From a virus (taxonomy: Duplodnaviria > Heunggongvirae > Uroviricota > Caudoviricetes): 64,000 nucleotides of DNA. The translations under genes were made by a program, and so were the position numbers. This document shows, one piece after another, positions 8,258 through 44,445 of this stretch. Location of the stretch: positions 44,218 to 108,217 of IMG/VR virus record IMGVR_UViG_3300032205_000001; one strand, given 5' to 3'. The stretch's first letter is position 1. Every line of letters starts with the position of its first letter. The notes below the pieces were generated by a model. It was not told where the DNA came from, searched no databases, and saw only the letters and a list, made by a program, of their open reading frames with translations.

Positions 8258-8576
8258 TGGACACCGGCCCGAGCACAGCAAAGCGGTGACGGCTACCACC
8301 GAGGTTGGAGCGGCAGCACGAGCACATGCGCCAGCTGAATTCGTTGATACCGTCGCCGGTTTCGGAGTCGAAGTCCGGCACGAGGTTGGGCCCGAGGCGT
8401 GCGAGACCAGCATCGATCTCAGCAGCGCGCTCCTTGGCGCCATCCCTCAGCTCGCCACGGCCCGGGGACTCACCCTTGCCATAGTGCTCGTCGATACCCG
8501 AGTAATCGCCGTTGACGGCAACGAACAGGCAATCCTGGCACAGTTGGAGGTCATCCATCACGACTTGCATCGCCAT
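8247..8576 (-). CDS. hypothetical protein (109 aa)
   Basis: Track ORF 8247..8843 trimmed to Met90; CAT-N6-ACTACAA at the cassette 8574-8648. Confidence 0.4.
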   Translation of the reverse strand: MAMQVVMDDLQLCQDCLFVAVNGDYSGIDEHYGKGESPGRGELRDGAKERAAEIDAGLARLGPNLVPDFDSETGDGINEFSWRMCSCCRSNLGGSRHRFAVLGPVSNGG

Positions 8577-11368: not shown

Positions 11369-11905
11369 CTAGGCCTCGTCGGCGAGATCCGCCACGATGG
11401 CTTTCATCCGGCGGGTTGCCGTGGCAGGCGACCATCCGACGAGCGCTCCGGCCTCGGTCTGTCCCATGCCGTCCAGCATGGCGCCCACGAACGTACGAGC
11501 GTCCGAGTCGAGCGTATCGAGCGCAGTGGCAAGCCAAGCCATCTCCGACCGACGCTCGACATCGAGGCGACCATCGGGGCCCACGAACGAACCACACTCG
11601 GCCACGTTCGTGCCGAGGGTATCGACGAGCATGCTCGTGTTCCCCTCGTCGTCGGAAGCTTCCGACACGTGGCCATTGTTGGCGCTCGCCTTGCGCCAGT
11701 TACGAGCGGTATTGCTGGCGATACGGAGCGCCCACGACTCGAACGAACCACGGGACTCGTCGAAGGTTTCGACGGCCGACAGGATGCGCACAACCGCATC
11801 CGACACGATGTCATCGGTGGCCGACGTGGGGCCAATGGCCCGCTCGACGGCGCGCGACATGGACTTGAGTAGCTTCGCGTTCAGTGCAGCGTTGATGTTC
11901 AGCAT
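11369..11905 (-). CDS. ECF-like sigma-70 family sigma factor (paralogue of 6129..6650)
   Basis: FESWALRIASNTARNWRK (region 2) and ARTFVGAMLDGMGQTEAGALVGWSPATATRRMKAIVADL (region 4); promoter TTGACA-N17-GATAGT-N6-ATG at 11906-11940 on the minus strand. Confidence 0.7.
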   Translation of the reverse strand: MLNINAALNAKLLKSMSRAVERAIGPTSATDDIVSDAVVRILSAVETFDESRGSFESWALRIASNTARNWRKASANNGHVSEASDDEGNTSMLVDTLGTNVAECGSFVGPDGRLDVERRSEMAWLATALDTLDSDARTFVGAMLDGMGQTEAGALVGWSPATATRRMKAIVADLADEA

Positions 11906-12307: not shown

Positions 12308-12699
12308 GCAGGCCTAGATCCTAGCAGATCTGGCATGCATTGTCAAGATCTCGCGTATGCATAGGAAAACTCTAATGTATACACGGCATATAGCGTGCCA
12401 ATATAGGAGTTTTCCATGGCTATGCATGCAACACATTGATATCATTGGCGCGAAAACTCTCCGCGCATAGGGATTTCAGCCTATTGGAGGGCGTGCCGGT
12501 CCCCACGTCTAATCACGACACCTTTTCACCCTCTAATAGGTCATTCCGCGATTGTCAATTTTCGTTTCAAAGGGGACCCTATTTCCATTTCCAATAGGAA
12601 ATCGAAAATATTGGAGAACTATTTTTCACCTGGAACACCTATTAACGCATTGTCAATGGCGCTCTTGACAATGAAGCCCGCCCCAACGAACCTCTTCCC
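12308..12699. promoter_or_regulatory. AT-rich repeat-dense intergenic region (candidate origin or regulatory switch)
   Basis: Five CCAATAGG/CCTATTGG-type boxes; the split palindrome GGAAAACTC (12364-12372) ... GAGTTTTCC (12407-12415) flanked by TATGCATA; a GCGCG-AAAACTCT-CGCGC hairpin; CATTGTCAA-N9-TTGACAATG (12647-12673); an A/T-rich stretch at 12580-12625. Confidence 0.4.
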
Positions 12700-13650: not shown

Positions 13651-14037
13651 ATGACGGATAAGATGGACCCCAAGAAGACCACGAGCGCCAACCCGCCTCT
13701 GTTTGTGCCCAAGCAAGAGGACCCGAACAAGGTCGAGCTGACCCTGGACGAAACGCTGCTCAAGCTGGCCGACCTCTATCGGCAGTTCGCTCCGCTGAAG
13801 AAGCAGCTGGAGAACCTGAAGGGCGTTGCTAAGGCGCACCTCAAGGCTCAGGGCAAGACGAGCTACCAGATGGAGAACGGCATCAAGGCCCAGTTCTACG
13901 ACTCGCAGAAGTCGCAGCTCAACAAGGAGCTAGCCAAGGAAATCTGCGGTCCGCGTTGGGCCGAGGTCGAGAAGTTCGTGACCACCACGAGTTTCAAGGT
14001 CACGGTGCCCGGCGTGAAGAGCCCGGACGCCGATTAG
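13651..14037 (+). CDS. hypothetical protein (128 aa, coiled-coil-like)
   Basis: ORF track; a TTGTAGTAC half-site at about 13586-13597 lies upstream. Confidence 0.5.
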   Translation: MTDKMDPKKTTSANPPLFVPKQEDPNKVELTLDETLLKLADLYRQFAPLKKQLENLKGVAKAHLKAQGKTSYQMENGIKAQFYDSQKSQLNKELAKEICGPRWAEVEKFVTTTSFKVTVPGVKSPDAD

Positions 14038-14303
14038 TTCAACCCATCCTGCTACGTCAATACGAAGGAAGCGTACGGACCGTAAGAGGCAGGTCGAGAT
14101 AATACTCGACGTATGCAACCAGTCGGTCCAGGATGGCCATCTCTGGAGCTGATGGGAGTACGACCCTTGGACGCAAATACTTTCCTTCCACCCGGGAAAG
14201 TAGTCCTTGCTAGGCCCATCGGTAATTAGCAGCAGGCCCGCTCCGCCTGGGGAGGCAAGAGAGCAATCGTGTCGGGCGCCGGCCACGCTAACGAGGCGCA
14301 CTT

Positions 14304-14389
14304 GGATTTACCCCGGAAGGATACTGCTCTCCTGGCTTCGGCCGAACCAGTGAAATGTCCGGCAGGCGTGGAAGACGCCAGGTAAATCC
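14304..14389 (+). ncRNA. candidate structured small RNA
   Basis: Closing stem GGATTTACC/GGTAAATCC encloses a GGC-UUCG-GCC tetraloop hairpin (nested in a CTGG/CCAG stem) and a GGCG-N7-CGCC hairpin; it lies in a 449-nt ORF-free, lower-GC gap (14038-14486) in an otherwise gap-free operon. Confidence 0.3.
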
Positions 14390-14486
14390 GCTACTTGTAA
14401 AATAGTTGAAGTTTTTTCGGCAAAAGGGTTCCGGCTTGTAGTTCCCACGACGATTGACCCCGTGAAACACAGGAGGTCTACGCGTC

Positions 14487-14729
14487 ATGGAGAACGACTA
14501 CGAAATTCCGACGAGCCCGATGGTTGCCCGCGCGATGCTCCGCTTCTATCGCCTGATGGAAAAGCAGGAGCCGGGGCGCTGGGCCAAGTACATCGAGTTC
14601 TACGAGGCACTGGTGGAGGCGCTAGGCTCGCCCGCCATCAGCCCGCAGGAACGGCTGCTCAGGCACATCTTCGACCATCGGCAGGAAATTCTCGACGAGC
14701 TAGACGACGAGGACGACCTGGACAATTGA
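14487..14729 (+). CDS. hypothetical protein (80 aa)
   Basis: ORF track; AGGAGG Shine-Dalgarno at 14471-14476. Confidence 0.5.
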   Translation: MENDYEIPTSPMVARAMLRFYRLMEKQEPGRWAKYIEFYEALVEALGSPAISPQERLLRHIFDHRQEILDELDDEDDLDN

Positions 14730-25827: not shown

Positions 25828-26226
25828 ATGACCCACGAAGAGGCACTCAATCAGCTGAATACGCTCAAGGAAGCACTTCTTGAGGCACACAAGGTGGAGA
25901 TCTCAAAGCACCGCTGTGAGTTCCATATCCCCACAAGCGATCCAACGATCTCCCCAAAAGACCTTCCGACGTGTCGGTGTACCGTCACCTGCATTGGCGA
26001 GACGCCAAACAAGCGCAACCAGTACTGGCTGTGCGAGGAGCACGGCAAGGAGTGGACGGAGCTGTGCAAAGACACCGAAGGCGTCAAGCCAGGTCGCGAG
26101 GGTCGAGTCATCGAGCCCTGGACCCGTTTCATCTCTATCCTCTCAGAAATAGACGATACTCTTGTCTTTGACAATGGCGCCGTCACCCGTAAGGATGCGA
26201 CTGAATGCGCGACGCCTTCGACCTAA
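25828..26226 (+). CDS. hypothetical protein (132 aa)
   Basis: ORF track. Confidence 0.45.
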   Translation: MTHEEALNQLNTLKEALLEAHKVEISKHRCEFHIPTSDPTISPKDLPTCRCTVTCIGETPNKRNQYWLCEEHGKEWTELCKDTEGVKPGREGRVIEPWTRFISILSEIDDTLVFDNGAVTRKDATECATPST

Positions 26227-44188: not shown

Positions 44189-44445
44189 CCGTCGGTGACT
44201 TGCTCAACGAATGCGATCGGGCCCGTAAACAGGGACTGAAGTACGTCGTTCTCCGCATCGAACGTCACGGTGGTGCGTGGATGCAGGTCATGAAGGGTCT
44301 GTTGGGAAACGTCATTGGCTCAGACAAAACCGGCTCCTTCGTATCTGTCGACATTCTGAAGGCAGAATCGAAGGCGGTCGGAATTGATCCAGCCACAGAG
44401 ATTCCGAAGGTGTCAGCACATCGGTCTAAGGTGACAATGGGCTGA
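44185..44445 (+). CDS. hypothetical protein (86 aa, GTG start)
   Basis: In frame with track ORF 44020..44445. Confidence 0.35.
   Translation: MTVGDLLNECDRARKQGLKYVVLRIERHGGAWMQVMKGLLGNVIGSDKTGSFVSVDILKAESKAVGIDPATEIPKVSAHRSKVTMG

Follow-up and report, generated by a model that had tools for sequence, protein, structure and literature searches.

The locus considered here raises the question of what a phage keeps in 449 nucleotides (nt) that hold no recognisable gene. It lies at positions 14038–14486 of a 64,000-nt stretch of DNA (IMG/VR record IMGVR_UViG_3300032205_000001, positions 44,218 to 108,217; "the window" below always means this stretch at its full length), which appears to belong to a large uncultured phage and encodes an endolysin-like peptidoglycan-binding protein, an SPFH protein and dozens of small open reading frames (ORFs) without known relatives. 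A sequence-only reading of the DNA had proposed a structured-RNA element at this place, built on a unit of 86 nt. The proposal is right in kind and too small in extent: positions 14043–14389 form an RNA of about 347 nt, read from the plus strand and folded into three self-closed domains (D1, D2 and D3), and the 86-nt unit is only the last of these. We consider it very probable that this is a real structured RNA under selection. The RNA belongs to an uncatalogued family with no detectable relative, so far found in one small clade of uncultured phage-like genomes, and our leading, still tentative, reading of its role is that of a stable RNA acting in trans from the 3′ end of an early transcript.

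The gap is bounded by two plus-strand ORFs, one of 128 amino acids (aa) at 13651–14037 and one of 80 aa at 14487–14729, which leave exactly 14038–14486 free. The earlier claim that no plus-strand ORF of 60 aa or more lies between them is borne out, as the longest has 48 aa (14207–14353, with a TTG start), and the same 449 nt are left without a gene when an identical metagenomic contig is annotated independently. Two other statements about the gap do not survive inspection. It had been called an island of lower GC content, but it has a GC content of 0.557 where the window has 0.568, and among the 449-nt segments between 12 and 45 kb 27% are lower still; the structured part reaches 0.582, and only the last 97 nt (14390–14486) are low, at 0.485. 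Genes had also been said to overlap everywhere else between 12 and 45 kb, but there is at least one other large gap, at 12308–12699.

D1 (14043–14139, plus strand) is a three-way junction present in all five independent genomes that carry the element. Its closing helix, P1′, pairs CCATCCT (14044–14050) with AGGATGG (14130–14136) over 7 base pairs (bp), and two arms leave the junction: P2′, a 5-bp hairpin formed by TACGT (14053–14057) and GCGTA (14071–14075), and P3′, in which GGACCG (14077–14082) pairs with CGGTCC (14124–14129) over 6 bp and which carries an optional hairpin, GTCGAG-ATAATA-CTCGAC, at 14093–14110. These are the nested inverted repeats that had drawn attention to the gap in the first place, and they lie as described. 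D2 (14140–14303, plus strand, 164 nt) is a multi-branched and optional domain. It is closed by TCTCT (14140–14144) with AGAGA (14258–14262), and contains helix b (GCTGATGGG at 14148–14156 with CCCATCGGT at 14215–14223) and hairpins d (14169–14206), e (14236–14256) and f (GCGCC at 14276–14280 with GGCGC at 14295–14299).

D3 (14304–14389, plus strand) is the 86-nt unit of the sequence-only reading, found exactly as stated with its UUCG hairpin and its GGCG…CGCC hairpin, and is present in four independent genomes. Its ends are joined by P1 (14304–14312 with 14381–14389), closed by GGATTTACC/GGTAAATCC. P1 stacks on P2 (CCGGA at 14313–14317 with TCCGG at 14358–14362), from which a long arm continues through P2a (TACTG at 14322–14326 with CAGTG at 14348–14352) to the variable hairpin P3 (GGC-UUCG-GCC, 14334–14343), so that P1, P2, P2a and P3 make up a coaxial arm of about 23 bp interrupted by two internal loops. 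The remaining helix, P4, is a short hairpin (GGCGT-GGAAG-ACGCC, 14365–14379).

Folding of single sequences says little about this model: the whole gap is not significant on either strand (z = −0.95 for plus, −0.07 for minus), and the modules taken singly are modestly so (z = −2.6 for D3 and −3.3 for D1). The decisive support is comparative. We fetched metagenomic contigs through homologues of the 128-aa protein and found homologues of the element directly after the 128-aa gene homologue, 5–130 nt past its stop codon, in four further independent metagenomic genomes. The independent carriers are thus the window and the contigs L001, L010, L011 and L016 (L001, L002 and L028 being the same sequence), which amounts to 4–5 independent sequences in total and to two for D2. 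L001 has all three domains and is about 74% identical to the window over 14043–14383. L010 and L016 have D1 and D3 joined directly, so that, of the window's element, they match just the initial ~100 nt plus the 86-nt unit. L011 has D1 followed by an unrelated 3′ domain of about 150 nt, with a 10-bp closing stem and a run of six U.

Across these genomes the helices are kept while their sequences change. In D1, 97.8% of cells in the alignment are paired across the five genomes, the third pair of P3′ being A-U, U-A or C-G depending on the genome and the seventh pair of P1′ being C-G or U-A. In D3, the window builds P1 from GGATTTACC/GGTAAATCC, L001 from CTAACC/GGTTAG and L010 from GACTGGCC/GGCCAGTC; double changes affect three pairs of P1 and one pair of P4, which alternates between G-C and A-U. 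For D2, RNAalifold gives 50 pairs with none broken, five of them with double changes and seven with compatible single changes, and helix b alone has three consecutive double changes in L001. The agreement depends on the register of the alignment: pairing is 94–98% in register, compared to 22–43% when the partner columns are slid by 1–3 positions. When alignments were folded against column shuffles, D1 reached z = −4.6 and D2 z = −3.3 (none of 200 shuffles as good in either case), and D3 z = −2.6 (3 of 200).

The peripheral hairpins behave in the same fashion. P3 of D3 appears in the four genomes as a 4-bp stem with UUCG, a long stem with GAAA, a 4-bp stem with UUCG and a long stem with GCAA, and the hairpin inserted in D1 is in the relatives either entirely different in sequence and length or absent, giving three different hairpins in all. 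The UUCG and GNRA caps are features of RNA and read correctly on the plus strand only. Together with the G-U pairs (an invariant U-G in P2a, and several in D1 and D2) and the consensus energy of D2, which is −50.8 kcal/mol on the plus strand compared to −32.2 kcal/mol for the reverse complement, they favour the plus strand; D1 and D3 fold with little difference between the strands. D3 is 81–90% identical between genomes, compact copies of D1 78–97% and copies of D1 with a long variable hairpin 66–73%, compared to 65–82% for the flanking genes in most pairs (69–79% for the 128-aa gene in most pairs, 89.5% between L010 and L016), so that between the same genomes D1 and D3 have for the most part diverged less than the coding DNA that flanks them. 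Two runs are invariant, one of 23 nt in D3 (CCCCGGAAGGATACTGCTCTCCT) and one of 12 nt (GAACCAGTGAAA), and both are mostly unpaired. In sum the homologues show compensatory changes and conserve no short protein gene.

The domains are combined in nature as D1+D2+D3, D1+D3, or D1 with another domain. D1 is constant and the 3′ domains (D2+D3, D3 alone, or the domain of L011) are exchangeable; D2 is limited to the window and L001/L028, and absent from L010, L016 and L011. The alternative domain of L011 (1735–1915 of that contig) has GGGGACTAGC/GCTAGTCCCC as its closing stem and then T6, an end that looks like an intrinsic terminator; it folds with z = −2.0 and has no match in Rfam. In L001 (4395–4526), D1 is separated from the 128-aa gene homologue by an insertion of 128 nt that contains a 43-aa ORF overlapping the upstream stop codon, with two Cys pairs (CRWFGC…CLRCG) that give it a zinc-ribbon-like look, and without a match in Pfam.

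The question of whether this RNA belongs to a known class was addressed with the 4227 covariance models of Rfam 15. The whole window gives no match at gathering thresholds, and 13900–14600 searched at expectation values (E) up to 10 gives only two unrelated chance matches, both outside the element. Among the relatives, searched at E up to 1, the only match is a tRNA in L017, a contig without the element; the compact D1+D3 form of L010 has no match at E up to 10, and L011 none that is relevant. The scan thus finds no known family, which excludes the known classes of ribozyme and riboswitch. A search with ARAGORN of the window and of the loci that carry the element yields neither a tRNA nor a tmRNA.

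Several more specific identities were considered and rejected. As regards a tRNA-like fold, D1 has a 7-bp closing stem, but only two further arms and neither T-loop nor CCA. The known self-cleaving ribozymes (hammerhead, twister, twister-sister, pistol, hatchet, hepatitis delta virus-like) give no Rfam match at permissive thresholds. The element is no group I intron: the last residue of the upstream protein (…VPGVKSPDAD) is the same in genomes that carry it and in those that do not, and there is no match to Intron_gpI. D3 also recalls 5S rRNA: its arm has the same order of parts (helix, asymmetric loop, helix, loop) as helix II, loop B, helix III and loop C, with GAAC and GUGAAAYG in corresponding places, and the ends are likewise joined by a helix of 9–10 bp. 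The lead failed. The Rfam 5S_rRNA model gives no match to D3, and a D3 model run with filters off and E up to 10 gives none to E. coli rrfB (rrnB locus, L034 5638–5757); unlike 5S rRNA, moreover, D3 is only 86 nt long and its third arm is minimal. Likenesses to RNase P P4, helix 8 of the signal recognition particle RNA, the ZTP riboswitch and type I-F CRISPR repeats were short matches by eye, not conserved or in conflict with covarying helices, and without Rfam support. A 12-nt match of D2 to 16S rRNA is due to chance, not being conserved in L001, and a pseudoknot between the loop of P4 and CUCUCCU, perfect in L010 and L016, is mismatched in the window and L001 and thus not supported.

Though the family is new, phage-borne structured RNA as a kind has precedents. 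Phage T4 encodes the species 1 and 2 RNAs (rnaC and rnaD), stable RNAs of unknown function that adjoin tRNA genes, and the large ornate RNAs GOLLD and ROOL are associated with prophages. Like these, the element is a structured non-coding RNA borne by a phage, with variable peripheral hairpins and conserved loops. In L017 a tRNA gene, tRNA-Arg(UCU) at 2147–2220, sits in the slot after the 128-aa gene homologue where the element would be, which shows that the slot is able to carry genes for stable RNAs. Compared to GOLLD and ROOL the element is much smaller, matches neither these nor any other Rfam model in sequence or structure, and consists of three separately closed modules in varying combinations. 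Cryo-electron microscopy work on GOLLD and ROOL has reportedly been posted (bioRxiv 10.1101/2024.12.08.627333).

What the RNA does has to be read from its position and form, from which we infer transcription, processing, stability and action in trans. In L001, L010, L011 and L016, that is in four of the five genomes, the genes that come next are convergent, so that the RNA is there at the 3′ end of a rightward transcription unit, directly after a stop codon; in the window the next gene is co-directional. We propose that the element would be transcribed as the tail of an early transcript that runs rightward and has the 128-aa gene as its last gene. Closed helices together with hairpins capped by tetraloops would give it a compact body resistant to exonucleases, and an endonuclease could release it at AU-rich single-stranded linkers seen in the relatives, with AAAAUAUUUU before D1 and CAUUCUUUUUAU between D1 and D3 in L010 and L016 as candidates. 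The stable RNA so released would work in trans by means of those unpaired nucleotides that never vary, and early in infection would most likely offer a phage or host protein either a platform to bind to or a decoy. Such long invariant loops point to a specific partner, and would more likely contact a protein than an antisense target; no site complementary to them was found in the window. This picture resembles that of bacterial small RNAs derived from 3′ untranslated regions (UTRs), in its position (in those four genomes immediately past a stop codon and last in the transcription unit), in the stem and U-run that end the element in L011, and in the AU-rich linkers, which could be RNase E sites. 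Unlike those RNAs, it is followed by no terminator in the window, L001, L010 or L016, and unlike typical seed-pairing small RNAs it is longer, far more structured and without an antisense target in the window.

We hold that the RNA is a stable trans-acting one with somewhat less than even confidence, as several observations weigh against it. Sequences are few, so that the covariation counts are small and P2 and P2a never vary. No antisense target of the invariant loops was found in the window. Neither a sigma-70 promoter consensus nor, on either strand, an intrinsic terminator was found in 14038–14486 (only the alternative domain of L011 ends with a stem and U6), which leaves discrete ends of the RNA in the window conjectural. 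The 128-aa protein has no recognisable RNA-binding fold, and the element always adjoins this one gene, which would also fit a role in cis for its mRNA.

Such a role in cis is the strongest alternative, possible if rather unlikely. The element would be the 3′ end of the upstream mRNA, blocking 3′ exonucleases or providing a processing site for RNase III or RNase E, and would determine how long the early transcript lasts and where its limits lie, without any function in trans. Its constant place directly after the 128-aa stop codon, at the end of a rightward transcription unit in four of the five genomes, speaks for this, and so does the long arm of D3, which with about 23 bp and its internal loops is as large as a substrate of RNase III. 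A conserved irregular stem-loop between cistrons of an early operon also brings to mind the RNase III hairpins between the early genes of phage T7. Those, however, are single hairpins of about 60 nt, whereas the element has three-way junctions, an optional domain of 164 nt and long invariant unpaired stretches. A stabilising hairpin needs neither the junctions nor an invariant unpaired sequence of 23 nt, many equally conserved homologues of the 128-aa gene do without the element, and in L011 the 3′ domain has been exchanged for an unrelated one while D1 stays. Among the functions listed by the sequence-only reading, a small RNA and an RNase processing site are still candidates, and a riboswitch or leader and a packaging or partition site have become unlikely.

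A bolder possibility, which we regard as unlikely, is that a functionally new class of phage RNA has here its first member. The element would then be either a modular decoy, with D1 as a handle for exchangeable 3′ domains, that captures or mimics a host RNA-binding protein or a defence component early in infection, or a new class of self-cleaving ribozyme that punctuates early transcripts. The ribozyme taken by itself, with at least one of the domains cutting the polycistronic early transcript, has a low probability. Compact junction folds, invariant nucleotides in internal loops and variable peripheral hairpins are typical of small ribozymes, and the element sits where the transcript must be cut or ended; but no Rfam ribozyme matches even when short stretches are searched at E up to 10, and no conserved candidate cleavage site was identified.

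A riboswitch or 5′ leader that controls the downstream 80-aa gene is improbable, and largely refuted by synteny. In the window the next gene is indeed co-directional, and D3 contains an invariant CUCUCCU that resembles an anti-Shine-Dalgarno sequence. In L001, L010, L011 and L016, however, one or two convergent genes part the RNA from the homologue of the 80-aa gene and its upstream block, D3 is followed by no expression platform or terminator, and the element matches no riboswitch in Rfam. The 80-aa gene moreover has a conserved upstream block of its own, 14390–14486 (plus strand), which serves as its 5′ UTR and Shine-Dalgarno region and lies outside the RNA. It contains CTTGTAAAATA (14394–14404), a conserved block TTCCGGCTTGTAGTTCCCACGACGATTG (14429–14456) and AGGAGG (14471–14476), the Shine-Dalgarno sequence expected there, 10 nt before the ATG at 14487; a TTGTAGT half-site reported at 14423 is actually at 14436–14442. 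In the same four relatives the block TTCCGGnTnG…CGATTG stands directly upstream of the 80-aa gene homologue, and since it accompanies that gene and not the RNA, 14390–14486 is separate from the element. The block occurs once in the window, and could be a promoter, operator or leader specific to this gene, possibly for a sigma factor of the phage itself.

The chance that the gap holds a short protein-coding gene after all, or a conserved sequence without function that stems from a recent shared insertion, is just as slight. The 48-aa ORF has a high GC content at third codon positions and a 38-aa tblastn match in L001, and the element is confined to a small clade. But the ORF spans D2 into D3, which rules it out in L010 and L016, where D2 is missing, and in L001 its frame is broken by indels of 1 and 4 nt and the ORF ends differently (48 versus 77 aa). 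Indels among the relatives are 1, 2 and 4 nt long, not multiples of three. No frame of a small ORF is conserved on either strand, as the relatives match only as fragments in shifting frames, and the gap is also covered by two minus-strand ORFs (123 and 66 aa), neither of which is conserved. Neutral drift, for its part, would not concentrate variation as compensatory changes in paired positions.

Least probable of all is a site that acts as DNA (an origin, a packaging or partition site, or an array of inverted repeats bound by protein), for which the inverted repeats and the near-equal folding of D1 and D3 on both strands might speak, since the G-U pairs of the helices would turn into A-C mismatches if the opposite strand were read, the UUCG and GNRA caps are of RNA type, the folding of D2 strongly favours the plus strand, and the element occurs only once and has no direct-repeat iterons.

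To return to the trans-acting RNA that we favour, its interest lies in the fact that phage-encoded structured RNAs are poorly charted, and that those with known roles (packaging RNAs, antitermination RNAs, RNA anti-CRISPRs, and tRNAs that replace those destroyed by anticodon nucleases) tend to uncover new biology. The element is compact and experimentally tractable, with clear helices, domains of 70–110 nt and a minimal natural form, D1+D3, of about 170 nt. What makes it a good candidate for experiment is that its domains are swapped naturally as modules, that its invariant loops are long and that it is placed among the small unknown genes of an early region. Should it bind a host or defence protein, or cleave itself, it would define a new class of RNA; should it merely stabilise the end of an mRNA, it would be of local interest. 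The finding is genuine and novel, but the family is rare and the sequences are few. Searches of IMG/VR with four patterns for the element and two protein queries gave only chance matches, as judged by eye and by covariance models. A pattern scan of JGI metagenomes gave no further homologue and neither did GTDB genomes, a protein-guided scan returned only a duplicate of L001 and distant loci without the element, and public phage and plasmid records gave no match at the DNA or protein level.

The element has no second copy in the window or in the loci of the relatives. A weak match of the D3 covariance model at 26022–26095 (18.8 bits), inside an ORF of 132 aa, is probably due to chance: it aligns over the outer stem, P4 and part of P2, but leaves the model's 36 central positions and most residues of the conserved core unmatched.

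The 128-aa gene (13651–14037, plus strand) is the one constant neighbour, as the RNA, where present, always follows it. Its product has 16 metagenomic homologues at 54–75% identity, in addition to an identical copy on a 175-kb contig, and the family has an invariant C-terminus, VPGVKSP, which adjoins the RNA. Sequence searches of Pfam, PHROG and PDB find no match to it. An AlphaFold model (predicted local distance difference test score of 75) shows a long helix, strands and a second helix (H-E-E-H-E), and Foldseek gives no PDB match to it below E = 0.8. Many homologues of the gene occur without the RNA. A gene for an SNF2 helicase comes next in L003–L008 and convergent genes in L009 and L012–L014; the contig L015 stops 178 nt past the gene. 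One of those without the RNA, L003, has a gene of the AcrVA2-like anti-CRISPR family a few kb downstream of the 128-aa gene homologue (from 8337–8396), and the region may thus be a neighbourhood of anti-defence or host-takeover genes.

On the far side of the RNA, L010 (4645–4848), L016 (1358–1561) and L011 (2075–2290) share on their minus strands a conserved convergent gene of 67–71 aa, whose stop codon abuts the 3′ strand of P1 of D3 in L010 and L016. This gene is absent from the window.

Short sigma-factor genes with only a Sigma70_r2 domain lie just upstream of the early operon in several of these genomes: the window has a phage-type sigma factor at 11369–11905 (minus strand), L001 has two such genes (1–332 and 1328–1924) and L010 one (1234–1761), which suggests that the phage redirects the host RNA polymerase. 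Between the region of the sigma-factor gene and the rightward block of small ORFs lies the other large gene-free gap already mentioned, 12308–12699, with 392 nt and a GC content of 0.464, the lowest between 12 and 45 kb; it is empty in the independent gene call as well. Two sigma-70-like promoter matches are found within it on the minus strand (12346–12318 and 12401–12374), and it is probably an early regulatory or promoter region.

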